Source: an uncultured Spirochaetota bacterium (GTDB lineage: Bacteria; Spirochaetota; Spirochaetia; SZUA-6; Fen-1364). From it: DNA of 64,000 bases. Below are positions 46,777-62,464 of the stretch, piece by piece. Where the stretch lies: the NCBI GenBank assembly GCA_963745235.1, contig CAVUXE010000009.1:96001-160000 (forward strand). The letters run 5' to 3'. A program made the position numbers and the translations under genes. The notes beneath the pieces were generated by a model. It saw nothing but the letters and a program-made list of their open reading frames with translations. It did not search any database and was not told where the DNA came from. Positions within the stretch are counted from its first letter, which is position 1; every line of letters starts with the position of its first letter.

Positions 46777-48090
46777 ATGGTGCTGTCGCGTCACAACATC
46801 ACGGGACGACTGAAGGACTCCGAGGGTTCCTTCATCATCAACCCTCTTTCCCGCAGCGCGGACCTTCTGAGCCCCGAGAGGGCCGGGGAGCTGGCCTCCG
46901 GCACTTTCTCCAATCCACGGGAGCTGGCCGAAAAGGGGTACCTGGTCGATCCTGACGAGGAAACCCGCAATTTCCGCGCTGCATACCTGGATTTCCTCGA
47001 CTCGCGGGATCATGGAGAGACCCAGCTTTTTTTCGTTCCCTGGTACTCCTGCAACTTCGCCTGCCCCTACTGCTACCAGGAGGGGTATGCCGCCCAATCA
47101 GGCGTGCTAGGGGATGAGGTGAGCGAGGCGTTTTTCAATTACGTCGGGAAGGAGTTCGCCGGCGGTCCGTCTATGTGACTCTCTTCGGAGGGGAGCCCCT
47201 CCTGCCGGGCGACCGGGCGCGGAAAAGCATCCAAAGGTTTCTCGACCTGGCAGCGGCGCAAAGCCTTTCGGTTGCCGTGGTAACCAACGGGTACATGCTT
47301 CGCGACTACCTGGAGACATTGCAGCGTGCGGCCATTCGTGAGGTCCAGGTGACCCTGGACGGGGTGGGCGGCCTGCATGACCGCAGGAGACCGCTGCGGG
47401 GCGGCTTGCCCACTTTCCAGCCGATTGTCGATGGGGTCGACGAGGCGCTGAAGCGCGGCATTCCCATCAACCTGCGGGTCGTGCTGGACCGGGAGAACAT
47501 CCACGGCCTGCCGGAGCTGGCGCGATTCGCCCGGGACCGGGGCTGGACCGGGAATCCTCTCTTCAAGACGCAGCTGGGGCGAAATTACGAGCTTCACACC
47601 TGCCAGGCGGATCCCGGCAGGCTCTACACCCGCGTGGAGCTCTACCAGGAGCTCTCCACCCTCGCTTCCCAGCATCCCGAAGTCATTCGAGCTCCACCGG
47701 CCGGCATTCTCCCTGGCAAAGTTCCTCTGGGAGAACGGGGAGCTGCCCGCGCCCTTGTTCGACTCCTGTCCCGGCTGCAAGACGGAATGGGCGTTCGACT
47801 ACGCCGGCCGCATCTATTCCTGCACTGCGACCGTCGGCAAGGTCGGAGACGAGCTGGGGACATTCTATCCGCAGGTGAGCAGGCGGGATGACCTGATCGA
47901 GGAGTGGCAGCAGCGGGACGTGACATCGATCCCGGAGTGCCGCACCTGCAATCTCCAACTGGCCTGCGGAGGCGGGTGCGCGGCAGTTGCCCGCAACCGG
48001 GAGGGCAGGCTGAACGCCCCTGACTGCCGTCCGGTGAAAGAGCTGCTGGAAATGGGGTTGTCACTCTATTTTGGAAAGGAATACGAATGA
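46777..48090 (+). CDS. Radical SAM/SPASM peptide maturase (frameshifts near 47165 and 47690)
   Basis: CNFACPYC, FGGEP, TNG, QVTLDG; SPASM CPGC..G.IYSC and CRTCNLQLACGGGC-x15-C; RRE-like N-terminus. Confidence 0.9.
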
Positions 48091-49373
48091 TGGCTGCAAT
48101 GGTTCACGAGATCGCGGCGGACCAGTATGAAAAGGAAGTTCTGGCAGGAGGAAAGGTCGTCCTTGACTTCTACTCCACCGAGTGTCCGCCCTGCGAGGCG
48201 CTGGCGTCCAAGTACGAGGGGCTCGCCCGGATCTACGGGGAGGACGTGCGGTTCCTGAAGATTTTCCGACAGGGGAACAAGGCGCTCGCGGAAACACTTG
48301 GCGTGGCAAGCTCGCCCACTCTTTTGTTCTACGACGGGGGGAAGCGGCTCGAAGGTCAGCTGAGCGGCGGAATTCGACGCTCGCAGATCGCCGAGCGGCT
48401 GGACCAGATGCTCCCTCCCAGCCGCGTTCAGGAGCTGCGGGGAAAGGTCACCCCGGTCGTCACCGACTGTGACGCCCTCATCCTGGGCGGCGGTCCTGCC
48501 GGCCTGACCGCCGGGATCTACCTCGCACAGGCGCACCTGAAGACCGTGATCGTGGACACCGCGCTTCCCGGCGGATTCGTTGCAACCACACACCAGGTTT
48601 CCAACTACCCGGGGTTCCCTGACCCTTTGAACGGCTACATGCTTTCCCATTTCATGAGCGAACAGGCAAAGAAAGCGGGGGTTGTTTTCCGCGCAGCCGC
48701 GGATGTGGCCGCCCTGGACCTCGAAAGAAAAACAGTCCTCCTCGACGGCTATGAGACGGTCCGGGCACGCACGGTCATACTCGCCACGGGCTCCACCCCG
48801 CGGCCGCTGGGAATCCCCGGGGAAAAGGAGCACAGGGGCCGCGGCATTTCCTACTGCGCCACGTGTGACGCGAAGTTCTACGAGGGAAAAGACGTGGTGG
48901 TCATAGGCGGAGGCAATTCCGCCGTGGAGGAATCCCTTTTCATTGCGAGGTTCGCCCGCAAGCTCACCGTTGTCCACCAGTTTGCCCAGCTCCAGGCCAA
49001 CAAGGAGGCCCAGAAGAAGGCCTTCGACAACCCGCGGGTCGATTTTCTCTTCGAGCACGAGCCCCGGGCGTTCATCCGTCACGCGGACATGGACATGGAG
49101 GTGATCGTGGAGAACCTGCGGGATCATTCAATCAGAGGGCTTCGCTCGAACGGCGTGTTCGTCTTCGTGGGTTTCATACCGAATGTCCTCCCCTTCGACG
49201 GCGAGTGCAATCGGGATGCAGCGGGGTACATCGTCACTGACGAGAAGATGCGTGCCAGCCTTCCCGGCGTCTACGCCGTGGGGGACGTGCGGTCGAAACC
49301 TTACCGCCAGATTACCACGGCGACAGCCGATGGCACGATTGCCGCCATCGCCATTTCCCAGGAGTTGGCATAG
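48087..49373 (+). CDS. Thioredoxin-thioredoxin reductase fusion
   Basis: N-terminal Trx fold (DFYSTECPPC), then GGGPAG, CATCD, GGGNSA and GD. Confidence 0.92.
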   Translation: MMAAMVHEIAADQYEKEVLAGGKVVLDFYSTECPPCEALASKYEGLARIYGEDVRFLKIFRQGNKALAETLGVASSPTLLFYDGGKRLEGQLSGGIRRSQIAERLDQMLPPSRVQELRGKVTPVVTDCDALILGGGPAGLTAGIYLAQAHLKTVIVDTALPGGFVATTHQVSNYPGFPDPLNGYMLSHFMSEQAKKAGVVFRAAADVAALDLERKTVLLDGYETVRARTVILATGSTPRPLGIPGEKEHRGRGISYCATCDAKFYEGKDVVVIGGGNSAVEESLFIARFARKLTVVHQFAQLQANKEAQKKAFDNPRVDFLFEHEPRAFIRHADMDMEVIVENLRDHSIRGLRSNGVFVFVGFIPNVLPFDGECNRDAAGYIVTDEKMRASLPGVYAVGDVRSKPYRQITTATADGTIAAIAISQELA

Positions 49374-49433: not shown

Positions 49434-49481
49434 GGGAATCCGGATTCCCGTTTTTTCTCATCACGGGAACCCGCGTTCCCG
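49434..49481. promoter_or_regulatory. Two related dyads GGGAA-N6-TTCCC, candidate enhancer (UAS) sites; the first may also act as a terminator
   Basis: GGGAATCCGGATTCCC at 49434-49449 and CGGGAACCCGCGTTCCCG at 49464-49481; centres 31 bp apart. Confidence 0.55.
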
Positions 49482-49570
49482 CTTCCCGGCCGGCCGCTCG
49501 CGGCCTCGTGAAAAAGAGCGCGCCGGCCAGTCTTTTTCGCGCGTTTTTGCCGCTCTTGCGGAGCCTGTCC

Positions 49571-49586
49571 TGGCACAGATCGTGCA
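49571..49586 (+). promoter_or_regulatory. sigma54 (-24/-12) promoter
   Basis: TGGCACAGATCGTGCA = TGGCAC core with exact GG-N10-GC spacing. Confidence 0.75.
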
Positions 49587-49597
49587 TACTGTCGGTA

Positions 49598-51128
49598 ATG
49601 CCCCCGTTGGTCTCAATGAAAAACATTACGAAGCACTTCGGTTCCGTGAAGGTCCTGGACCAGGTTGATTTCGTCATTTACCCGGGCGAGGTGCACATCC
49701 TGGCGGGGGAAAACGGGGCCGGCAAGAGCACCCTCATGAAGATCCTTGCGGGCGCATACGCCGACTACCAGGGCCGAATCGAGATGGAGGGACGGGAGAT
49801 CCGCCCCTCGAGCCCTCTGGACGCCAACCGGCATGGGATTGCGGCCATCCACCAGGAGCTTTCCCTCATCCCGTCCATGACCGTTGCAGACAATCTCTTT
49901 CTCGGCCACCCCATCACCCGAAGGGGCTTTGTTCAGGCGGGAGCCCACCGGCGCAGCGCGGAGGACGTCCTGGGCAGAGCGGGCGTCCGTGCCTCGGTCA
50001 CCTCGCTCGTGGAGGACCTGCCTATCTCGGTGCAGCAGCTCATCGAGATCACCAAGGCCATACGATTGAACGCGCGGGTCCTCATCATGGATGAGCCGTC
50101 AAGCGCCCTGAACGCGCACGATGTGGAAACCCTCTTCGCCCTCGTGCGGCAGCTGAAGGTCGAGAACCGCGGGATAATCTATATCACTCACCGACTTGAG
50201 GAGATCCACCGGCTTGCAGACCGGATCACTGTGCTTCGTGATGGACGGCTCGTGGGCAGCTCTGCGGCTTCCGATCTTCCCGAGAAGAAGCTCATCCGAA
50301 TGGATGGTTGGCCGGGAGATCGAGGAGCAGTTCCCCCGCCACACGCCGCAGATCTCCACCGAGGCGCTGCGGGTGGAAAATCTCTGCGTTCGCGCCGCCA
50401 GCCGCGCTCTGCGTCCCCTGGTGGACCGGGTCTCCCTTGGTGCTTCGCGCGGTGAGATCCTTGGAATCGGCGGGCTGCAGGGCTCCGGTGCCAGCGAGCT
50501 CTTTCTCGGTCTTTTCGGCGCGTTGCCAAAGAGGACGGAAGGGCGGGTGGCCATTGATGGAAAGCCGGTCCGAATCCGATCTCCCCGCGACGCCATTGGG
50601 AACGGCGTCGCCCTGCTGACCAACGACCGCAAGGCCACCGGGCTCATCGCCTCAATGTCGGTGACGGCAAACATGTGCGCGGCCAACATGAGGACCCTGG
50701 CGCCCCGCGGGTGGCGGCATCCGCGCCTGGAAGTCCGGGCGGCCACCGAGATGGGCAGGGCGCTGCAGCTTCGCGCCGCCTCGCTGGACATGGAGGTCGG
50801 GGAGCTCTCCGGCGGCAACCAGCAGAAGGTGGCCATCGGCAAGTGGCTCACGACGAACCCGCGGATCATGCTCCTTGACGAGCCGACCCGCGGAATAGAC
50901 GTGGGCGCCAAGCACGAGATCTACCAGCTCATGAACGACTGGACTGCTCACGGGATCTGCATTCTCCTGGTGACCTCGGAGATGCCCGAGCTTCTCGCCA
51001 TGAGTGACAGGATCGTTGTCATGCACCGGGGGGCCATTACAGCGGAGCTCTCCCGCCAGGAGGCCACCGCTGAGAAAGTCCTGGAGGCGGCCATGGGAAA
51101 GACGAACGGAGGCGGAAATGGTCGGTGA
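49598..51128 (+). CDS. Sugar (CUT2) ABC ATP-binding protein (frameshift near 50300)
   Basis: GENGAGKS, DEPS, LSGGNQQK, DEPTRGIDVGAK. Confidence 0.93.
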
Positions 51129-52188
51129 GATACGGGAGCAGCTTCGCGGGGACCTGGGCCGCGGACCGAAGACCGGACAGAAGCGAAACGGTGTGGCCGG
51201 CGTTCTCCAGGCGATCGGCCATGCGTTGACCAGCTCCGCCGGCCGGGCATGCCTCGAGCTCCTGCTGGTGCTTCTCCTGGGCGTCATCTTCAACGCGGAC
51301 GGGGCATTCTTCAAAGAGGGGACGCATCGTGACACCCTGCGCCAGGCCTCGGTCTACGGGATCCTTGCCTGCGGGATGACGCTGGTCATCATCACCGGGG
51401 GGATCGACCTCTCCGTCGGGAGCGTCCTTGCAGTCTCCTCCGTCTCCTTTGCCCTCCTGTCCATGCACATGGACTGGACCTGGTGGCTGGCCATCCCGGC
51501 ATGCCTCGGGCTGGGCGCCCTCCTCGGTTCAGCCTCCGGCGCCCTGGTCTCCAACGCGAAGCTGCAGCCTTTCATCGCCACGCTGGCGCTGATGACCTTT
51601 GCCCGCGGTTTCGCCAAGTACATCACCGGCGGGCAGAAGATCTCCACCTACGTCACGCAGGGCGACAAGGTCATCATCAAGGAGCTCCCCCCGGTCTTCA
51701 AGTTCATCGACTCGCGCATCCTGGGAGGCAACCTTGCCATTGTGAGCGTGATCTTCTTCGTCTGTTTCATCGTCGCCTGGATCTTCCTTGCCCGCCACAA
51801 GTGGGGCAGGGAGCTCTACTCCATCGGCGGCAACGAGGAGGCGGCCAGGCTTTCTGGGGTCCCCGTGCGCATGGCAAAGTTCCTGGCATACACCTTCTCC
51901 GGGCTCATGTGCGGCGTGGCGGGCATTTGCCAGGCTGCACAGGAGACGCAGGGGGATCCCGAGACCGGGGCAGGCTACGAGCTGACTGCCATTGCCATGG
52001 TGGTCATCGGCGGGACGAGCCTCGCGGGAGGACGGGGGAGCATGGGGCTCACGCTCCTGGGCATCCTCACCATCGGATATTTGCAGAAGATTCTCAGCAT
52101 CAATGCGGTCCCGGAAGCCGGCCGGCTCATGATCACCGGGATCATCATTGTGCTCGCCGTTCTGACGCAGAAGCGGAGGACCAAGTAA
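51118..52188 (+). CDS. Sugar ABC permease, RbsC-like
   Basis: GGIDLSVG, GGNEEAARLSG, GGTSLAGG. Confidence 0.93.
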   Translation: MVGEIREQLRGDLGRGPKTGQKRNGVAGVLQAIGHALTSSAGRACLELLLVLLLGVIFNADGAFFKEGTHRDTLRQASVYGILACGMTLVIITGGIDLSVGSVLAVSSVSFALLSMHMDWTWWLAIPACLGLGALLGSASGALVSNAKLQPFIATLALMTFARGFAKYITGGQKISTYVTQGDKVIIKELPPVFKFIDSRILGGNLAIVSVIFFVCFIVAWIFLARHKWGRELYSIGGNEEAARLSGVPVRMAKFLAYTFSGLMCGVAGICQAAQETQGDPETGAGYELTAIAMVVIGGTSLAGGRGSMGLTLLGILTIGYLQKILSINAVPEAGRLMITGIIIVLAVLTQKRRTK

Positions 52189-52275
52189 CGGTGCCTCCGG
52201 GAGAGGAGGAAAGAGGCAAGCAGACCGGGCTTCGGAATGTTCTCGAAATCCAATCTCTTTGAAAGGAGATGATCC

Positions 52276-53205
52276 ATGAGATCCATCACAAAGTTTCTCC
52301 TCTGTGCGGCTCTCCTGTGCTCGCTGGCGGTATTACCCGTGTTTTCCGCCCCGAAATACATCATCGGGATGAGCCAGTGCAACCTCGGTGAGCCCTGGCG
52401 CGTGCAGATGAACGCGGACATCAAGGCAGAGGCCGCCAAGCACCCGGAGATCCAGGTGATCTACAAGGACGCGCAGAATGACGTGCTGCAGCAGCGCGCC
52501 CAGGTCGAGGAGTTCGTCGACGCCAAGATCAACCTGCTCATCATCAGCCCCAAGGAGGCGCAGCCGCTTGCGGAGCCCGTGTCCAAGGCAATGGCCGCGG
52601 GCATCCCCGTCATCGTGCTGGACCGCGATATCATTGGCCAGAACTACACCGAGTTCATCGGCGCGGACAATGTGAAGATCGGCCGCGCTGTCGGGAAGTG
52701 GCTCGTCCAGAACTACGGCGGAAAGTCGGCCAGGGTCGTTGAGATCATGGGACTGCAGACCTCGACTCCCGGCCAGGACCGGCACAACGGCTTCCTGGAG
52801 GCGATCAAGGGCTCCGACTTGAACGTGATCTTCCGCGCGGATGCAAAGTGGCTCGAGCCCGATGCCCGCCGGGAGATGGAGTCCGCCCTCGCCCGGTTCG
52901 ACAAGATCGACATCGTGTACGGGCACAACGATCCGTCAGCCCACGGGGCGTACCTCGCGGCGCAGGCGGCGGGCCGGGAGAAGGACATGGTGTTCGTCGG
53001 AATCGACTCCCTGCCCCAGGAAGGTGTCGCGTACGTGAAGCAGGGCATCCTGACGGCGACCTTCCAGTATCCCACCGGCGGTGACGTGGCCATCAAGCAG
53101 GCCCTCAAGATCTTCAACGGAGAAAAGGTCGTCAAGAGGATCGTCCTCGGCTCGCGGATGTTCACGAAAGACAACGTGGACGCCGGAGGACAGGCCATCG
53201 AATAG
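52276..53205 (+). CDS. Sugar ABC substrate-binding protein
   Basis: Signal peptide; EPWR, DR and GHND motifs of the periplasmic binding protein type 1 fold. Confidence 0.92.
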   Translation: MRSITKFLLCAALLCSLAVLPVFSAPKYIIGMSQCNLGEPWRVQMNADIKAEAAKHPEIQVIYKDAQNDVLQQRAQVEEFVDAKINLLIISPKEAQPLAEPVSKAMAAGIPVIVLDRDIIGQNYTEFIGADNVKIGRAVGKWLVQNYGGKSARVVEIMGLQTSTPGQDRHNGFLEAIKGSDLNVIFRADAKWLEPDARREMESALARFDKIDIVYGHNDPSAHGAYLAAQAAGREKDMVFVGIDSLPQEGVAYVKQGILTATFQYPTGGDVAIKQALKIFNGEKVVKRIVLGSRMFTKDNVDAGGQAIE

Positions 53206-53226
53206 GCGCATCTCCTTCCTGCAGTG

Positions 53227-53259
53227 CCCCCGGACCGGCCTGTCCGGGGGACCATTTTT
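53227..53259 (+). terminator. Intrinsic terminator
   Basis: CCCCCGGAC/GTCCGGGGG stem followed by ACCATTTTT. Confidence 0.65.
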
Positions 53260-53286
53260 GATCCGTCCGTGCTATACTCGTGGTGA

Positions 53287-54642
53287 ATGTCGACCGGCGA
53301 CGCGAGGCCCGCCATGGATTACCGCATCCTGATTATCGATGACGAGAAAGAGCTCTGTGTCTCTCTTTCAGAAATCCTGACGGAGGAGGGTTACCACACC
53401 CTCTTCACCAGTGATCCGCTTGAAACGCCAGCCATCCTGGCGCGCACCCGCGTGGACCTCATCATCCTGGACATCCGTATGCCCGGCATCGGAGGCATCG
53501 ACCTTCTGCGGATGGTGCGCAAGACCAACCCGAACATCAAGGTCATCATCCTGACCGGCCATCCCAGCATCGAGAACGCCGTCCTTTCCATGAAGTACGG
53601 GGCCGCGAACTTCTATGAAAAGCCGCCCAACTTGAAGAAGCTCCTCAAGGAGATCCGCGAGTTTTCCGCGCGAGATGCCTCCGTCGGCGGACCCACCGGG
53701 GTCGAGTTGCAGTCCGCCCGCCGGGTGGTGACCAGAGATCCGCGGATGGTGAAAGTCCTCCAGTCAGCGGAGAAGGCGGCTGCCACAACGGCCCCCGTTC
53801 TCATAACAGGGGAGAGCGGCACGGGCAAGGAGCTCATTGCAAGCCTTGTGCACGAAGCGGGGCAGCGGGCAGACAGGCCCTTCATCAAGGTGAACTGCGC
53901 TGCCATCCCCGAGACGCTCCTGGAAAGCGAGCTCTTCGGCCACGAGAAGGGCGCCTTTACGAACGCCCTGGCCCAGAAGAAGGGCAAGTTCGAGCTTGCC
54001 CATGAGGGCACTATTTTTCTCGACGAGATCGGAGACATGAGCTCGAGCACGCAGGCCAAGATCCTGCGGGTCCTGCAGGAGCAGGAGTTCGAGCGGGTGG
54101 GAGGAACGCAGACGATCCGGGCCGACATCCGAATCATCGCGGCCACCAACAAGGACCTTCGACTCCTCATCCAGAAGGATGCCTTCCGGGAGGACCTCTA
54201 CTACCGGCTGTGCGTGATCTCCCTGCACATACCACCCCTGCGCGAGCGGCCTGAAGACGTCGAGCTGCTCATCGACCACTTCCTCAAGCTCTTCTCCACC
54301 CAGTATGCGCGGGAAATCCGCGGGCTGGACGCGCAAACCCGGGAGCTGCTCCTGGCCCACACGTGGCCCGGGAACGTGCGGGAGCTGAAGAACTGCATCG
54401 AAAGGGCCACGATCTTCTGTGAGGGGGAGCTGGTCACCCTCGAGGACCTTCCCTCCCAGTACATGGAGCTGGAGGGGACTCATCTGGGCCAGAAGCTCCA
54501 GAGCAGCTTCGAGCAGCTGAACCGCGCCATGATCATGGAGGCCCTGGAAAAGTCGAAGGGCAAGAAGTCGAAGGCCGCGGACATGCTGAACATCAACCGC
54601 CGGACGCTGTACAACCGCATGAGGAAGCTGGGCTTGAGCTGA
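53287..54642 (+). CDS. sigma54-dependent response regulator (NtrC family)
   Basis: Receiver IDD/D/T/K, GESGTGKE, GAFTNA, FLDE, WPGNVREL and a Fis-type HTH; alternative start 53314. Confidence 0.95.
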   Translation: MSTGDARPAMDYRILIIDDEKELCVSLSEILTEEGYHTLFTSDPLETPAILARTRVDLIILDIRMPGIGGIDLLRMVRKTNPNIKVIILTGHPSIENAVLSMKYGAANFYEKPPNLKKLLKEIREFSARDASVGGPTGVELQSARRVVTRDPRMVKVLQSAEKAAATTAPVLITGESGTGKELIASLVHEAGQRADRPFIKVNCAAIPETLLESELFGHEKGAFTNALAQKKGKFELAHEGTIFLDEIGDMSSSTQAKILRVLQEQEFERVGGTQTIRADIRIIAATNKDLRLLIQKDAFREDLYYRLCVISLHIPPLRERPEDVELLIDHFLKLFSTQYAREIRGLDAQTRELLLAHTWPGNVRELKNCIERATIFCEGELVTLEDLPSQYMELEGTHLGQKLQSSFEQLNRAMIMEALEKSKGKKSKAADMLNINRRTLYNRMRKLGLS

Positions 54643-56459
54643 TGATGAAGCCGCGCGGGCCCCTCCTCGTTTCCATGAGGAACATCCATGTCAGCTATGA
54701 CAGCGTGCAGGCGCTGCGGGGGGTGGACTTCGACCTCGGCGCCGGGGAGATCCACGGTCTCCTGGGTGAGCACAGGGCCGGCAAGTCGACGCTGGTGAAG
54801 CTGCTCTCGGGAGCCGTGACGAAAGAGCGGGGGACGATCTGGCTCCGTGGAGAGGAGGTCCAGTCCTTCACGCCGAAATCCGCCATGCAGAACCGGATCG
54901 CTATCGTCTACCAGAACATGAACGTGATCCCGAGCATCAGCGCCATCGAGAACATCTTCACCGGGCAGCGGGTGACCCGACGGCTGGGCTTCCTGGACAC
55001 GAAGAGCATGGAGAGCACCGCGGTGAAGCTCTTCCAGGCCCTCCAGGTGGACATCAACCCGCACGCGCGGCTGGAGGACCTGACGGAGGCGGAGCAGCTC
55101 ATGGTGGAGATCGCCAAGGCGCTTTCCATCGAACCGGAGCTGCTGATCTTCGACGAGATATCGAGCAAGCTGACCCCCCGGGAGATGGAAACGATCTATC
55201 GGCTTCTCTTCGAGTTCAAGAGCCGTGGCAGGAGCGTGATCTACATCTCCCACAACATGGATGAGATCTTCCAGCTCGCCGACAGGGTCACCATCCTGAA
55301 AAACGGGCTCCGCCAGGGGACGGAGGAGATCCAGGACATCGACAAGCTCAAGCTGATCAAGATGACCTATTCCTACGTCCTGAGCAGGGAGGAGCTGGAG
55401 CAGGACAACCGGGAGCTTTTCCTGCTGAAGAAGTACAACGAGAACATCATCCGTAACCTTCCCATCGGGGTGATCATCCTCGACCAGAAAAAAAGGATCT
55501 CCATCGTCAACTTCGCGGCCGTGAAGATCCTTGCCCTGAAGGACGAGGTGCTGATGGACCAGCCGGTGGCGACGCTCCTTTCGCGCTGCGGGATGGAAAA
55601 ACGCGCGGAGATCGAGGAGAGAATCACCGCCAAGGAGGAGCACGTCTGGGAGGAGCTGCACTGCGCGGAAAAAGGGCTGGTCCGCCTGCGTGTCTTCCCG
55701 TTCCAGGACGACGAGTACAAGCACCTGGGCACCATCCTCGTCATCGAGGACATCTCGCGGGACCGCTATTTCCAGGACTACCTGCTGCGCTCCGAGAAGA
55801 TCGCCTCCATTGCGGAGCTTGCCACCGGGGTGGCGCACGAGATCTCCAATCCCCTCAGCGTCGTGCTCAACTACGTGGATCTTCTCAAGCGCCACCACGC
55901 GAGCGGCGCAGACGCGGAAAGACTCTCCAAGATCGAACGCGAGCTGAACCGAATCGGGGAGATCATCGGCAGCCTGCTTTCCTTCTCCAAGGTGCGCAAG
56001 ATCCCCATGGAACCGCTCAGCGTCGCCCGGATCATTTCCGACGTCGTTCTCCTCGTGGACCACAAGATCCACGAAAAAGCGGTGAACCTTCGCCTGCCAG
56101 CCGTGCCGGACGATCTGCTGGTCTACGGGGAGGAGAACAGCCTGAAGCAGGTCTTCGTGAATCTCCTCATCAACAGCGCGGAGGCCGTCCTCGAGCACGG
56201 GACCGTGGAGGTAGCCGTCAAGCGCATCGAGGCTGACAACTGCGTGGAGGTCTCGATCATCGACGACGGCTGCGGCATTCCTTCCGAGATCATCGACAGG
56301 ATTTTCGATCCTTTTTTCAGCACCAAGGCGGGAAAGAAGAACACCGGCCTCGGACTCTCCATCTGCCAGCACATCGTGGAATCCCACGAGGGGGTGATCA
56401 TGTGCTCGTCCGAGGAGAACACCGTGATGAGCGTGCGGCTTCCGATCTACCGCCCGTAG
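54642..56459 (+). CDS. Histidine kinase with N-terminal ABC ATPase domain (NBD-PAS-HisKA-HATPase)
   Basis: GEHRAGKS, VYQ, LLIFDE and ISH; PAS-like IIRNLPIGVIILD; AHEISNPL; N, G1, F and G2 boxes; no TM segment. Confidence 0.9.
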   Translation: MMKPRGPLLVSMRNIHVSYDSVQALRGVDFDLGAGEIHGLLGEHRAGKSTLVKLLSGAVTKERGTIWLRGEEVQSFTPKSAMQNRIAIVYQNMNVIPSISAIENIFTGQRVTRRLGFLDTKSMESTAVKLFQALQVDINPHARLEDLTEAEQLMVEIAKALSIEPELLIFDEISSKLTPREMETIYRLLFEFKSRGRSVIYISHNMDEIFQLADRVTILKNGLRQGTEEIQDIDKLKLIKMTYSYVLSREELEQDNRELFLLKKYNENIIRNLPIGVIILDQKKRISIVNFAAVKILALKDEVLMDQPVATLLSRCGMEKRAEIEERITAKEEHVWEELHCAEKGLVRLRVFPFQDDEYKHLGTILVIEDISRDRYFQDYLLRSEKIASIAELATGVAHEISNPLSVVLNYVDLLKRHHASGADAERLSKIERELNRIGEIIGSLLSFSKVRKIPMEPLSVARIISDVVLLVDHKIHEKAVNLRLPAVPDDLLVYGEENSLKQVFVNLLINSAEAVLEHGTVEVAVKRIEADNCVEVSIIDDGCGIPSEIIDRIFDPFFSTKAGKKNTGLGLSICQHIVESHEGVIMCSSEENTVMSVRLPIYRP

Positions 56460-57266
56460 CTATCGCACGGTGACCTTGTATCCCCTCACCTCGGTGCGGC
56501 CCGTGCCGGTGATCACCTCGTTTCCCAGCTCCAGCCCGGTCACGTAGAGATTGTCCCCCAGCAGCTTTCGCGACTGCAGGAAAGCGGCAAAAGCTCCAAC
56601 GTCGAGCGGTCCTTTCAGGACGGGTGTTCTGGCGAGGAAGGCCACGTATGTCCACTTCTGGGGGTTCTTGCCGGAAGCGTCGCCATGAGATTCGCGGACG
56701 AAGACATCAAAGGTGGTGCCGTCAAGCGTGAACACGTCTGTCCACACCCCTGCCGGTGTCATTCCCTTGTTGTCGATCCAGATCATGACCTCGTGGGTTA
56801 TGGCAGTCGGCCCCGCGGGCAAAGAGGACACGGTCCAGAACTCGAAGGCCATGTTGCACATTCCCGTGGCCTCGAACGAGATGTCGTAATCCACCGTGAT
56901 TCCGCGTGAGCCTATGAGGAGCGGAAGGTTGTCCGCCCGGCCCTGACGCTTTGCGTCCCAGGGGCTGTCCCCATACATCACCTCCGGATACGCAACGACG
57001 CCGTCGCTGGAGGGCCACCGCCACTGCCACCCGAAAGCGATCTCCCCGTTCGCGGTGCTCGTGAAGATTGCCTGCTCGTGCGGCCCATGCGCGGCCGCCC
57101 TGTTCCACGTGTTGTTGCTGAGCAGGTAGCCGCCGCCCAGGGACAGGGAAGCAAAGTCCCTGCTGAGACGGACGTCGCCGGTCTGCCGTTCATGCATCTG
57201 GGAGAGGCACCCCGTGAGCACAATGGCGCACACCAACCCCGCCACACAGGCTCGCAGCCGCGGCAT
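56460..57266 (-). CDS. GH12 family glycoside hydrolase lipoprotein
   Basis: LTGC lipobox; NNTWN, AYPE, EVMIW and LELGNE motifs. Confidence 0.85.
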   Translation of the reverse strand: MPRLRACVAGLVCAIVLTGCLSQMHERQTGDVRLSRDFASLSLGGGYLLSNNTWNRAAAHGPHEQAIFTSTANGEIAFGWQWRWPSSDGVVAYPEVMYGDSPWDAKRQGRADNLPLLIGSRGITVDYDISFEATGMCNMAFEFWTVSSLPAGPTAITHEVMIWIDNKGMTPAGVWTDVFTLDGTTFDVFVRESHGDASGKNPQKWTYVAFLARTPVLKGPLDVGAFAAFLQSRKLLGDNLYVTGLELGNEVITGTGRTEVRGYKVTVR

Positions 57267-58097: not shown

Positions 58098-58481
58098 CTA
58101 TTTCGTGTCTGCTTCTTCTTCCAGGTAGAACCGCATGATCGTGCTCCCGATCACGATCCGGTCCCCGTACTGCAGGCGGCTCTTCTCCGAGAGCTTTCGC
58201 GAGTTGAGGAAGGTGGAGTTCGTCGAGTTCAGGTCTTCGATGAAGTAGTCTCCCGCCCCGTCCACTGACACGGCGCAGTGCCGCCGGCTCAGGAGCGGGT
58301 CATCTATGACGAACTCACAGTCACCCTGGCGCCCAAGGACGCTGTGAGGCTGGTCGATCACGAACGTCGTTCCGAATCCCATGCGGGAAAGGATGACCAG
58401 GAGAGCTCTCTTTCCCAGCGCCGCCGAATACTTGAACTTCTGCGGGTCTTTCCTGATCTGTGTATTCTCTCCGCCGTTCAC
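58098..58481 (-). CDS. FHA domain protein
   Basis: LGR, SRRH, DLNSTNST and GDRI motifs. Confidence 0.88.
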   Translation of the reverse strand: MNGGENTQIRKDPQKFKYSAALGKRALLVILSRMGFGTTFVIDQPHSVLGRQGDCEFVIDDPLLSRRHCAVSVDGAGDYFIEDLNSTNSTFLNSRKLSEKSRLQYGDRIVIGSTIMRFYLEEEADTK

Positions 58482-58594
58482 AACGGGATCATCCCGGCGC
58501 CGGCAGCGGCTGTCAAGGTGCGCTTGCCTCCCCGCCGAACGGCGGTAGACTGTCGCCTCGGCGCGTGCTTCAATCCCGGCCAAGGAAACCACGC

Positions 58595-59431
58595 ATGGCA
58601 ATACTCCTGGCCGGTCTCTCCGCGCTGATGTACGGCGCGGCTGACTTCTGCGGGGGGATGGCGACGCGCAGGGCGCCGCTTCCCGCCGTGCTCGCCTCTT
58701 CCCAGGCGGTGGGCCTCGTGGTCGCCGCGGTTGCATCCCTCGCTTTCGGTTTTCACCTGACTGCTCCGTCAGATCTCGCCTGGGGCGCCCTGGCCGGCGT
58801 ATCGGGAGCCGCCGGTATTGCCGCGCTCTACTACGCCCTGGCCACGACAGTGGTTGCCGTGGCATCCCCCCTGGCCGCCGTTACGGGTGCCGTCATACCG
58901 GTCCTCCTGGGAGTTGCCGCGGGGGAAAGGCCAGGCTCCCTGGCGTGGGTGGGAATCGGGATGGGAGTGTGCGCCATTGCTCTGCTCACCGCGGGACCTT
59001 CAAAATCTCCCAGGGAGCGAGCAGTCCGTCGCGCGGCGCTCCTTGGCGTGCTGGCTGGTCTCGGATTCGGACTGTTCTTCTTTTCGATTTCCAGGACCTC
59101 TCACGCTTCGGGCCTGTGGCCGCTGGTGGCGGCCAGGATCGCAACCGTTTCGCTCGTGGTTCTTTTTGCCGTTGCGGCTCGCAGGCCTCTGCGCCTGTCG
59201 AAGGCGTCGCTTCCCATGGTTCTCCTCTCGGGAGGACTGGACATGGGAGCAAACATCGCGTTCCTTCTTGCGAGCAGGAGCGGGATGCTGAGCATCTCTG
59301 CCGCTGTCGCCGCCCTTTACCCGGGGCCCACGGTCATCCTCGCCTGGATCCTGCTGAAAGAGCGCGTGACGGCGCCCCGCGTGGTGGGGCTGGCCCTTGC
59401 CCTTGCCGGTGTGGCGCTCATTTCCGCGTGA
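58595..59431 (+). CDS. DMT/EamA family transporter
   Basis: YGAADFCGG; about 10 TM; LKER. Confidence 0.88.
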   Translation: MAILLAGLSALMYGAADFCGGMATRRAPLPAVLASSQAVGLVVAAVASLAFGFHLTAPSDLAWGALAGVSGAAGIAALYYALATTVVAVASPLAAVTGAVIPVLLGVAAGERPGSLAWVGIGMGVCAIALLTAGPSKSPRERAVRRAALLGVLAGLGFGLFFFSISRTSHASGLWPLVAARIATVSLVVLFAVAARRPLRLSKASLPMVLLSGGLDMGANIAFLLASRSGMLSISAAVAALYPGPTVILAWILLKERVTAPRVVGLALALAGVALISA

Positions 59432-60924: not shown

Positions 60925-62464
60925 GTGAGCCGCCAGATCCTTTCGATGCGGAAAATCGACAAGCGCTTCACGGGTGTGCATGCGCTTCGCCAGGTGGATT
61001 TCGACCTCGACGAAGGCGGAGATCCATGCCCTGGTCGGGGAGAACGGCGCGGGCAAGTCCACGCTCATGAAGGTTCTCATCGGCATCAATTCCAAGGACT
61101 CCGGTGAGATCCACTACCTGGGCCACCCGTTCAACCCGCGGGACCCCAAGCATGCCCTGGAGATGGGGATCGGGATAATCCATCAGGAATTGAACATGAT
61201 GGACCATCTCACGGTGGCCCAGAACATCTTCATTGGCAGAGAATCCACCCGGCTGAACGGCATCTTCCTGGACAAGCGGGAGCAGAACCGCATGACGGAA
61301 GAGCTGTTCAAACGGCTCAAGATGAACATCGACCCCAACGAGCCCCTGGCGCGGCTGACCGTCGGGAAGCAGCAGATGGTGGAGATCGCCAAGGCGGTGT
61401 CGCACCGCCTTCGAATCCTGATCCTGGACGAGCCAACCGCGGCGCTGACGGACGCCGAAATCGACGAGCTGTTCACCATCATGCGGGACCTGGCCAGCAG
61501 AGGCGTCGGCATGATCCACATTTCCCACCGCCTTGACGAGATCCACCGCATCGCGGATCGGGTCACGGTGCTGCGCGACGGTGAGCGAGTCGACACCAGG
61601 AAAACCTCGGAGGTGACGAAGCAGCAGATCATCAACATGATGGTCGGCCGCGTCATTTACGAGCAGCCGAAGACCCGCAGCAGCGTTCCCGCCGGAGCGC
61701 CGGTCGTGCTTCGGGTGAACCGGCTGAACGCCGGGAGGCTCGTGAAGAACGTCAGCTTCGAGCTGCGCCAGGGAGAGATCCTCGGCGTCGCAGGGCTGAT
61801 GGGGTCCGGCAGGACGGAGACGGCCCGGGCAATCTTCGGCGCGGACGAGGTGCAGAGCGGCACAATCGAGGTCCGCGGGCGGCGTGTCTCCATCCAGTCG
61901 CCGGAGGATGCCGTGGCGTACGGCATCGGGTACCTGTCGGAAGACCGCAAGCGCTTCGGGCTGGCGGTCAACCTGAGCGTGCGGGACAACCTGGCCATGG
62001 CCACCTATGACCGCTTCCAGCGGGGCCTGTTCATCCACGCGACGAAGGTCCGGCGGGTCACGGAGGATTACGTCCAGAAGCTGAATATCAGGACGCCGTC
62101 CCTGGAGCAGCTGCTGCGAAACCTTTCGGGCGGCAACCAGCAGAAGGTCGTCATCGCAAAGTGGCTGATCCGCAACTGCGACATCCTGATCTTCGACGAG
62201 CCGACCCGCGGAATCGACGTCGGGGCAAAGAGCGAAATCTACACGCTGATGAACGAGCTGACTCGTGAGGGAAAGTCGATCATCATGATCTCTTCGGAGC
62301 TTCCCGAGATCCTTCGCATGAGCGACCGCATCCTCGTGATGTGCGAGGGAAGGCTCACCGGGGAGCTTCCCATCGAAGAGGCGAGCCAGGAGGCAATCAT
62401 GGAGTACGCAACCATGGGGCGCCAGGAAGTCCTCAGCGAGGAGCTGATGCATGGCGTGACATGA
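60925..62464 (+). CDS. Sugar ABC ATP-binding protein (frameshift near 61015)
   Basis: GENGAGKS, LSGGNQQK, DEPTRGIDVGAK. Confidence 0.93.

Follow-up and report, generated by a model that had tools for sequence, protein, structure and literature searches.

A predicted soluble histidine kinase with a CUT2 importer-type ATPase domain in a conserved sugar-transporter module of Spirochaetota

We analysed 64,000 nucleotides of DNA from an uncultured Spirochaetota bacterium (GCA_963745235.1, contig CAVUXE010000009.1, positions 96,001 to 160,000 of the forward strand; the whole stretch is called the window and is numbered from its first letter), which encodes a histidine kinase that begins with the nucleotide-binding domain (NBD) of an ATP-binding cassette (ABC) importer. 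This NBD-kinase is real and conserved, and represents a form of transporter-coupled two-component signalling of which we found no description in print. Comparison of genomic loci places it in a conserved five-gene module together with a binding protein, a two-NBD ATPase, a permease and a sigma54 regulator. Our preferred reading, to which we give a probability of about 0.5, is that of a soluble kinase with a sensor derived from the first NBD (NBD1) of CUT2 importers and a sigma54 output, whose NBDs dock on the permease. The importer probably serves as the receptor of the kinase. An earlier note, made from the letters of the window, had pointed to the fusion and to a possible coupling of transport to autophosphorylation.

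Open reading frame (ORF), Pfam and NCBIfam analyses confirm one unbroken frame of 605 codons that unites the ABC NBD with PAS, HisKA and HATPase_c domains, and its ATG shares one base with the TGA of the regulator gene upstream (a 1-base overlap). Pfam matches ABC_tran (PF00005) to residues 25-173 (E 2.9e-22), and the HisKA and HATPase_c scores exceed the Pfam cut-offs. Residues 10-241 align in NCBIfam with positions 8-239 of 504 of AraG, YtfR, XylG and RbsA, whose N-terminal half is NBD1 of CUT2 ATPases, with scores far under the cut-offs of all CUT2 equivalog models, and residues 258-603 reach 250 bits against AtoS, for which the cut-off is 646. The protein therefore differs in layout from CUT2 ATPases of ~500 amino acids (aa), having one NBD followed by PAS and the kinase core in place of two tandem NBDs. 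Every motif that the earlier note had named is present: a Walker A with the catalytic Lys (GEHRAGKS, of the form GxxxxGK[ST]), the Q-loop Gln (Q91), the Walker B Asp-Glu (LLIFDE), the H-loop or H-switch His (H204), a degenerate signature (LTEAEQ) and the H-box AHEISNPL with His399. The H-box His is accompanied by the N, G1, F and G2 boxes of a HisKA-class kinase.

No 19-residue window of the kinase reaches a mean Kyte-Doolittle hydropathy above 1.6 (top value 1.53; 46 such windows in the permease), and there is therefore no predicted membrane segment. Since hydrophobic segments are absent and the domains tile the whole protein, there is no place for a periplasmic ligand-binding domain flanked by membrane helices. 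The protein is thus, as far as its sequence can tell, soluble, in agreement with the earlier note. The reading frame is equally secure. An independent assembly (locus L109) holds the same 605-aa kinase unbroken, with 98% identity over residues 1-605, and contigs of four public sequencing runs over 49500-56500, although patchy in coverage, carry no insertion or deletion within the gene. Neither a stop or indel at the junction of NBD and PAS nor homologues devoid of the fusion, which the earlier note had named as refuting outcomes, are thus borne out. Almost the whole gene is also covered on the minus strand by a 635-aa antisense ORF (54480-56387), which may be a by-product of base composition; we assigned the gene to the plus strand on the strength of the four Pfam domains in its product and of relatives that match over the full length. 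The AlphaFold2 monomer has a mean predicted local distance difference test (pLDDT) value of 77, with ~90 over most of the NBD and below 50 in the linker at 242-262; as a model it adds nothing on the mechanism of the kinase.

The fusion is shared by a conserved family. Both PF00005 and PF00512 occur in 115 of the 120 best database relatives, which go under names such as 'AtoS' or 'ATP-binding protein', and the PAS domain is always present in the best relatives by Pfam. Four of the remaining five have no ABC domain and one has no kinase part; these proteins are 365-491 aa long, some of them on short contigs. Across 28 aligned full-length members, which are 49-88% identical to the window kinase, the invariant positions lie in all parts of the protein: G42, H44, R45, G47, K48, Q91, D171, E172 and H204 in the NBD, R249, L252, N256, L259, K263, Y265, N266 and E267 in the linker, A398, H399, E400 and P404 in the dimerisation and histidine-phosphotransfer (DHp) domain, and N507, N511, D541, G543, G545, F555, G569 and G571 in the N, G1, F and G2 boxes of HATPase_c. 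The genome of the window is a metagenome-assembled genome (MAG) of 5.85 Mb in 104 contigs, 85.7% complete, and holds four NBD-kinase genes (C9, C28, C35 and C75), that of C75 being frameshifted. A sample of the phylum gave a full-length match at E<=1e-85 in 11/401 genomes and 9/153 genera; this is a lower bound, since only three candidates were scored per genome.

Further members were sought in the ESM Atlas and by a profile search. The Atlas contains a 62-member cluster of the NBD-kinase architecture (score 0.98). It also contains two clusters, mainly of Actinomycetota, with 64 and 166 members of ~826 and 852 aa and a score of 0.84, which at <0.9 makes them leads only; ABC_tran is found in 98-100% of their members and HisKA in 100%, and one of the two has GAF_2 as well. 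Additionally, there is a Spirochaetota cluster of 136 members and 515 aa, and this and the Actinomycetota clusters may represent NBD-kinase fusions, either related to the present one or of separate origin. To look for other domain contexts of the NBD, 14 kinase NBDs were combined into a profile and run against 1.84 billion representatives; the best 150 matches were nearly all two-NBD ATPases of ~500 aa, whose two matches sum. The longer matches inspected were fusions of ATPase with permease or with binding protein, and one (P0134) was a truncated member of the NBD-kinase family.

The origin of the sensor was addressed with a tree of 111 NBD rows, comprising 29 kinase NBDs, 63 CUT2 NBD1 domains drawn from the same loci and from the window's genome, and 19 NBD2 domains (every third of 58). 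High-scoring segment pairs under 190 aa or with stops were removed, and a quick IQ-TREE search without bootstrap was used. All 29 kinase NBDs group together in a single clade (SH-aLRT 96) that lies within the NBD1 domains, the NBD2 domains forming the outgroup clade (99). This topology indicates that the kinase NBD descends from NBD1 of the ribose/arabinose-type CUT2 importer ATPases, and a single nested clade argues for one old fusion among the rows examined, rather than repeated recent copying of the adjacent ATPase.

What the domain has kept and lost relative to its ancestors is informative, and residues were counted over the same 29, 63 and 19 rows. The ATP-binding residues are retained (K48, D171 and E172 in 29/29 kinase NBDs, Q91 in 28/29). 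The H-loop His204 is kept in only 23/29, being gone in the divergent L003-L009 group. In importers the helix after the Q-loop lines the groove that takes the coupling helix of the membrane domain. In the kinases this helix is conserved at least as well as in true NBD1 domains (N104 25/29, I105 26/29, F106 25/29, G108 28/29). Other positions have changed throughout the family: the inner pair of Walker A is His-Arg (H44 28/29, R45 27/29), as against Asn and Gly in 62/63 NBD1 domains each; the Pro after Walker B (173) occurs in 0/29, as against 62/63; and the D-loop is altered, with Lys or Arg at 176 in 27/29. In place of the LSGGQ signature (LSxGxQQ in CUT2 NBD1) the window kinase reads LTEAEQL; Gly150 of the signature is found in 4/29 kinase NBDs, 27/63 NBD1 and 19/19 NBD2 domains, and Q153 is lost in the kinases. 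We place every changed position on the surface where one NBD packs against the other; the nucleotide pocket is preserved, as is the part that in importers looks towards the membrane domain. This combination suggests that the domain is a conformational module which binds ATP and may still engage a membrane domain, and not a motor for transport, and a remodelled NBD-NBD face fits a switch of this kind better than it fits a motor.

The surroundings of the gene are as constant as the protein itself. The order in the window is two-NBD ATPase, permease, sugar-binding protein, response regulator and NBD-kinase (Table 1). We compared 15 modules in 14 regions, these being L001-L010 and four loci of the window's own genome, with two whole modules in L010. 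The regulator gene is directly upstream of the kinase in 15/15, and a complete CUT2 transporter with a single permease gene stands beside the kinase in 14/15, the fetched flank of L005 having none; two further modules with a complete CUT2 transporter were found at L110 and L113. Loci L005, L109, L112 and L114-L117 were too short or without recognisable flanks. In the window's genome the CUT2 permease has 44 matches (tblastn, 270 aa or longer) and two-NBD ATPases number in the dozens; an NBD-kinase module is attached to only four of the transporters (C9, C28, C35 and C75). The kinase is therefore tied genetically to one CUT2 transporter and to the sigma54 regulator, as the partners named in the earlier note had implied.

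These neighbourhoods also carry a consistent set of sigma54 promoter signals. A scan of both strands of the 14 regions (252,875 bp) with TGGCAC-N5-TTGCW, GG and GC being fixed, found 12 sites with at most one mismatch. Every one of the 12 falls in intergenic DNA that separates the regulator-kinase genes from the transporter operon; 11 are oriented towards the operon and one towards the regulator gene. With up to two mismatches allowed, 14/15 modules have a site. Exact palindromes with 6-base arms, of the type GGGAA-N6-TTCCC or close variants, lie 98-165 bp upstream of the sigma54 site in 6/14 modules (C9, L001, L002, L006, L010a and C75, the last with arms GGGGAG/CTCCCC). The regulator has receiver, sigma54 AAA+ and helix-turn-helix domains, and rpoN, the gene for sigma54, is encoded in the window's genome, so that with the -24/-12 promoter the parts of a sigma54 two-component system are all present. 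The loop of the window regulator that contacts sigma54 (residues 222-227) reads GAFTNA, as compared with the canonical GAFTGA; GAFTNA or G[AS][FY]TDA, with N or D at the fifth place, is found in 13/15 modules and the canonical G in 2/15. The pairing of kinase and regulator rests on the gene adjacency seen in 15/15 modules. Because sigma54 sites face the transporter operon, palindromes precede them and rpoN is present, signal flow from kinase to regulator to the sigma54 promoter of the transporter operon is well supported by the genomic data. The kinase would phosphorylate the adjacent regulator, which would bind the upstream palindromes and activate the promoter before the transporter operon. 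The operon of the window also holds the regulator and kinase genes, so that positive feedback would follow.

Two further observations concern this output. The sole match to the sigma54 DNA-binding domain (G000:C9:14093-14572) lies in an open frame of 234 aa, short for RpoN, which may reflect a frameshift or a truncated call. A further sigma54-like site, TGGCACAGCCTTAGCA, at L009:4415 on the plus strand, points towards the regulator and kinase genes in the divergent intergenic region, which suggests separate autoregulation where regulator and kinase lie outside the transporter operon.

The input side of the module we infer from the nature of the sensor and from a structure prediction. The permease is encoded by one gene per transporter and is presumably a homodimer, to which a kinase dimer would present two NBD1-like domains. 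These could dock where the transport ATPase otherwise would, on the coupling helices of the permease, and the binding protein and permease would then serve as receptor. Docking of the sugar-loaded binding protein would alter the opening and closing of the ATP-loaded NBDs, and this movement might be relayed by the conserved helical linker and then by the PAS domain to the DHp and catalytic core. That a surrogate ABC domain plugs the kinase into the cytoplasmic face of the importer in this manner, with binding protein and permease as the receptor, is a tentative proposal, a shade under evenly likely. In MalK and MetN the C-termini of the NBDs point away from the membrane, and a PAS-kinase portion attached at the C-terminus is therefore sterically compatible with docking.

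The docking on a sugar permease that the earlier note had suggested was put to a complex prediction with two copies of the window permease (residues 40-356, alignment of 30 rows comprising the genome's own paralogues and related loci) and the kinase NBD (residues 1-250, 28 rows). Three runs gave an ipSAE of 0.60, 0.60 and 0.61, compared with 0.00 for the best of three controls; they share at least 94% of contacts, with a partner pLDDT of at least 79, and the tool's verdict is 'weak support'. In calibration, its mark was reached by 58/80 solved complexes and 2/110 mismatched pairs, and scores of at most 0.60 belonged to only 7/80 solved complexes and to both mismatches that passed. The permease has no solved relative by sequence (0 matches at E<=1e-5), and no CUT2 ATPase stands among the best solved relatives of the kinase NBD. 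It is therefore less likely that the model passed by reproducing a similar solved complex, although such models are familiar with how ABC importers are built in general. Docking of the kinase NBD on the permease, as modelled, hence stands at weak support. We also compared each kinase NBD with NBD1 of its own module or of other modules (14 pairs): overall identity is 32.4% for the own module and 31.2% for others (permutation p 0.013), that of the Q-loop and helical segment 27.5% and 25.6% (p 0.057), and the largest own-module excess is at residues 211-245 (p 0.012).

Several points weigh against docking as we read it. The complex score falls in a band where passes are more often wrong than right unless the complex was likely beforehand, and what speaks for docking is a prediction. 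A complete two-NBD ATPase is also encoded in every module with enough flank, and the permease therefore has no need of the kinase NBD; among the matches listed in two locus scans, with ~ten true family loci each, there was no module without an ATPase. Additionally, a homodimer of NBD1-like domains would be expected to have no canonical signature at either ATP site (Gly150 in 4/29), so that its closure by ATP would be hard to explain, and it could be the PAS domain that senses the ligand. The excess similarity between kinase NBD and NBD1 of the same module is slight, is not confined to the groove and may stem from common composition.

Some of these points suit the alternative that survives best, namely that the NBD makes no contact with the transporter and acts as a cytoplasmic ATP/ADP-dependent dimerisation or energy-state switch, with the PAS domain sensing the imported sugar or a metabolite and the kinase then inducing the transporter. 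The family-specific remodelling of the NBD-NBD face (H44, R45, loss of P173, Lys/Arg at 176, signature) suggests a new and self-contained dimer mode, the PAS domain is always there, and each module retains its own full ATPase. We nonetheless regard this alternative as rather unlikely, as it leaves unexplained why the sensor is specifically a CUT2 NBD1 and why every copy, duplicated modules included, is accompanied by exactly one CUT2 transporter; the helix after the Q-loop is also still conserved, and the docking prediction, weak as it is, beat 3/3 controls.

In CUT2 ATPases the sole competent ATP site is formed by the Walker A of NBD1 and the signature of NBD2. The transport ATPase of the window follows this pattern, with the Walker A GENGAGKS in NBD1 and a degenerate Walker A (GLQGSGAS) and H-loop (TSE) beside a canonical signature (LSGGNQQK) in NBD2, and the kinase NBD resembles the NBD1 half. 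The converse defects of kinase NBD and NBD2 raise a second alternative, in which the Walker A, Walker B and H-loop of the kinase NBD would meet the NBD2 signature in one competent ATP site, on the native CUT2 pattern, and the kinase would read the ATPase cycle, and so transport flux, and not the permease; the H-loop His in 23/29 and the Walker B Glu in 29/29 kinase NBDs would agree with this. It is quite improbable, however, with NBD2 covalently joined to its own NBD1 in every intact ATPase seen, no free-standing NBD2 gene seen in the modules, and the split ATPase of the window most likely an assembly error. Finally, an artefactual fusion, whether from misassembly, from the reading of two genes as one or from a pseudogene in decay, can safely be dismissed, given the full-length architecture in 115/120 relatives of many sources, in the independent 98%-identical assembly and in 11/401 sampled genomes, and the invariance of catalytic residues in both halves, even though the MAG is prone to indels and has frameshifts in two neighbouring ATPase genes and one paralogous kinase.

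The preferred reading, with the importer as receptor, finds its nearest parallels in systems of three kinds. In Escherichia coli MalK-MalT, the ATPase subunit of an importer relays transporter activity to a transcription regulator, and the regulatory part of MalK is C-terminal to the NBD and membrane-distal. The NBD-kinase is alike in that an importer ATPase-type domain would carry information to transcription control. MalK, however, is a working transport ATPase that sequesters a separate STAND activator, whereas here a second, non-transport copy of an NBD is covalently joined to a histidine kinase whose output goes by way of a sigma54 response regulator. In BceAB-BceS, PstSCAB-PhoU-PhoR and DctA-DcuS/DctB, the transporter is the receptor or flux sensor for a kinase that controls its expression. 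The likeness to these 'trigger transporters' and co-sensors is that of a transporter-coupled kinase, which in our case is proposed from synteny and a weak docking prediction. Their kinases are separate membrane proteins that make contact through transmembrane or accessory proteins, whereas the NBD-kinase appears soluble and carries the transporter-subunit domain itself.

XylFII-LytS-YesN, LuxP-LuxQ, TorT-TorS and ChvE-VirA offer a third likeness, in that a Peripla_BP-type binding protein signals to a kinase that induces a sugar ABC transporter; XylFII-LytS controls xylFGH, according to part of a review of binding-protein signalling (PMC8050422). Kinases of the LytS, LuxQ, TorS and VirA type bind their binding protein through a periplasmic domain, whereas the NBD-kinase has no periplasmic or membrane part and any signal from the binding protein must therefore pass through the permease. 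Passages of the review give only periplasmic contacts, and the terms 'ATPase' and 'nucleotide binding domain' have 0 occurrences in it (PMC8050422).

By architecture, the module resembles AtoS-AtoC and NtrB-NtrC, with PAS, HisKA and HATPase_c in the same order and a regulator with receiver, sigma54 AAA+ and HTH_8 domains, although the kinase, as noted, scores far under the AtoS equivalog cut-off. AtoS has transmembrane helices and no ABC domain. KdpD has Walker motifs in an N-terminal domain that is not an ABC NBD, is anchored in the membrane and has an OmpR-type regulator as its partner. It resembles the NBD-kinase in having an N-terminal nucleotide-binding region and in controlling its own transporter, and differs from it in that the NBD-kinase has an ABC NBD, is predicted soluble and is paired with a sigma54 regulator. 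Part of one paper describes KdpD as a histidine kinase with such a region that controls the transporter KdpFABC (PMC11018627). Overall, the systems nearest by function, which are MalK-MalT and the transporter-dependent and binding-protein-dependent kinases, use separate proteins and membrane-anchored kinases. A search of the full-text literature, whose coverage stops short of subscription journals, found no description of a fusion of ABC NBD and kinase, which upholds the statement of the earlier note that no characterised example was known; the parts seen of the binding-protein review (PMC8050422) and of a signalling-protein census (PMC1183210) contain no mention of it.

Table 1. Features of the NBD-kinase module in the window (positions of the window; UAS, upstream activating sequence).
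Feature	Position	Strand	Details
Palindrome GGGAATCCGGATTCCC, candidate UAS (enhancer) for a sigma54 activator	49434..49449	.	137 bp upstream of promoter
Second palindrome GGGAACCCGCGTTCCC, candidate UAS	49465..49480	.	Palindrome scan
Sigma54 -24/-12 promoter-like site TGGCACAGATCGTGCA	49571..49586	+	One mismatch to TGGCAC-N5-TTGC; before transporter-regulator-kinase operon
CUT2 transport ATPase, two NBDs	49598..51128 (start 49598 or 49616)	+	Frameshifted here at ~50298-50304
CUT2 permease (BPD_transp_2, RbsC-like)	51118..52188	+	E 1.1e-47; RbsC 212 bits, under cut-off
Periplasmic sugar-binding protein (Peripla_BP_4, RbsB/YtfQ-like)	52276..53205	+	E 8.8e-47; equivalog models all under cut-offs
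Response regulator, NtrC/AtoC type (receiver, sigma54 AAA+, HTH_8)	53287..54642	+	AtoC 450 bits
NBD-kinase gene	54642-56459	+	Single open frame, 605 aa
Kinase residues 1-245, single NBD1-like ABC domain	54642..55376	+	Pfam, NCBIfam, tree, motif comparison
Kinase residues 246-266, highly conserved helical linker SREELEQDNRELFLLKKYNENI	55377..55439	+	Alignment of 28 sequences
Kinase residues 267-371, PAS domain	55440..55754	+	Pfam PAS, E 2.9e-07
Kinase residues 391-451, HisKA (DHp), phospho-acceptor His399	55812..55994	+	Pfam HisKA, E 6.6e-12
Kinase residues 497-602, HATPase_c catalytic domain	56130..56447	+	Pfam HATPase_c, E 3e-23

The transport ATPase that the earlier note had placed at 49598 is indeed there, although it is not intact in the window. 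One extra base at ~50298-50304, in the linker between NBD1 and NBD2, splits the gene. The base at 50298 is missing in contigs of 3/3 covering runs, the fourth run (X3) having no coverage there, and the ATPase is intact in L001 and L110. We considered a natural split ATPase, with overlapping ORFs at 49508-50455 and 50196-51128 and partner-swapping NBD1 and NBD2, and rejected it on the absence of the extra base from all three runs and from L001 and L110. The MAG has like frameshifts in the C28 ATPase and the C75 kinase, and its consensus seems prone to indels. The split is an assembly error, most likely, or a rare variant, and not biology.

Directly upstream of the promoter region of the module, a plus-strand gene at 48087-49373 encodes a 428-aa protein with a thioredoxin domain (6-106) and a thioredoxin-reductase-like pyridine nucleotide-disulphide oxidoreductase (129-416). 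A minus-strand gene at 56460-57266, convergent with the kinase gene and abutting its stop, encodes a protein of glycoside hydrolase family 12 (GH12) with a lipoprotein-like N-terminus (LTGC). This GH12 gene also adjoins the kinase in L109 (94% identical) and lies ~1.8 kb away in L110 (63%), and it may hint at the type of glycan whose sugars the module senses. Further downstream, outside the module, are an FHA-domain protein (58098-58865, minus strand) and another CUT2-type ATPase (~61016-61660, plus strand; C9:157016-157660).

How information passes from a transporter to a kinase, as in the Bce, Pst-PhoR and DctA-DcuS systems, is a long-standing question, and a hard one to study, since each partner is a membrane protein of its own. 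In the present case a transporter-subunit domain and a predicted soluble kinase are covalently joined, in a compact five-gene module with a predictable read-out at a sigma54 promoter, and the coupling is therefore directly testable. If the preferred reading is true, the ABC NBD would join the sensor domains of bacteria, and the module would amount to a two-component system of 'transporter-as-receptor' type with the link hard-wired. This design may apply more generally, the Actinomycetota clusters of the Atlas serving as leads only. It could also account for the induction of particular importers in free-living spirochaetes, which have CUT2 importers by the dozen, the genome studied here having 44 permease paralogues and four sensor modules.

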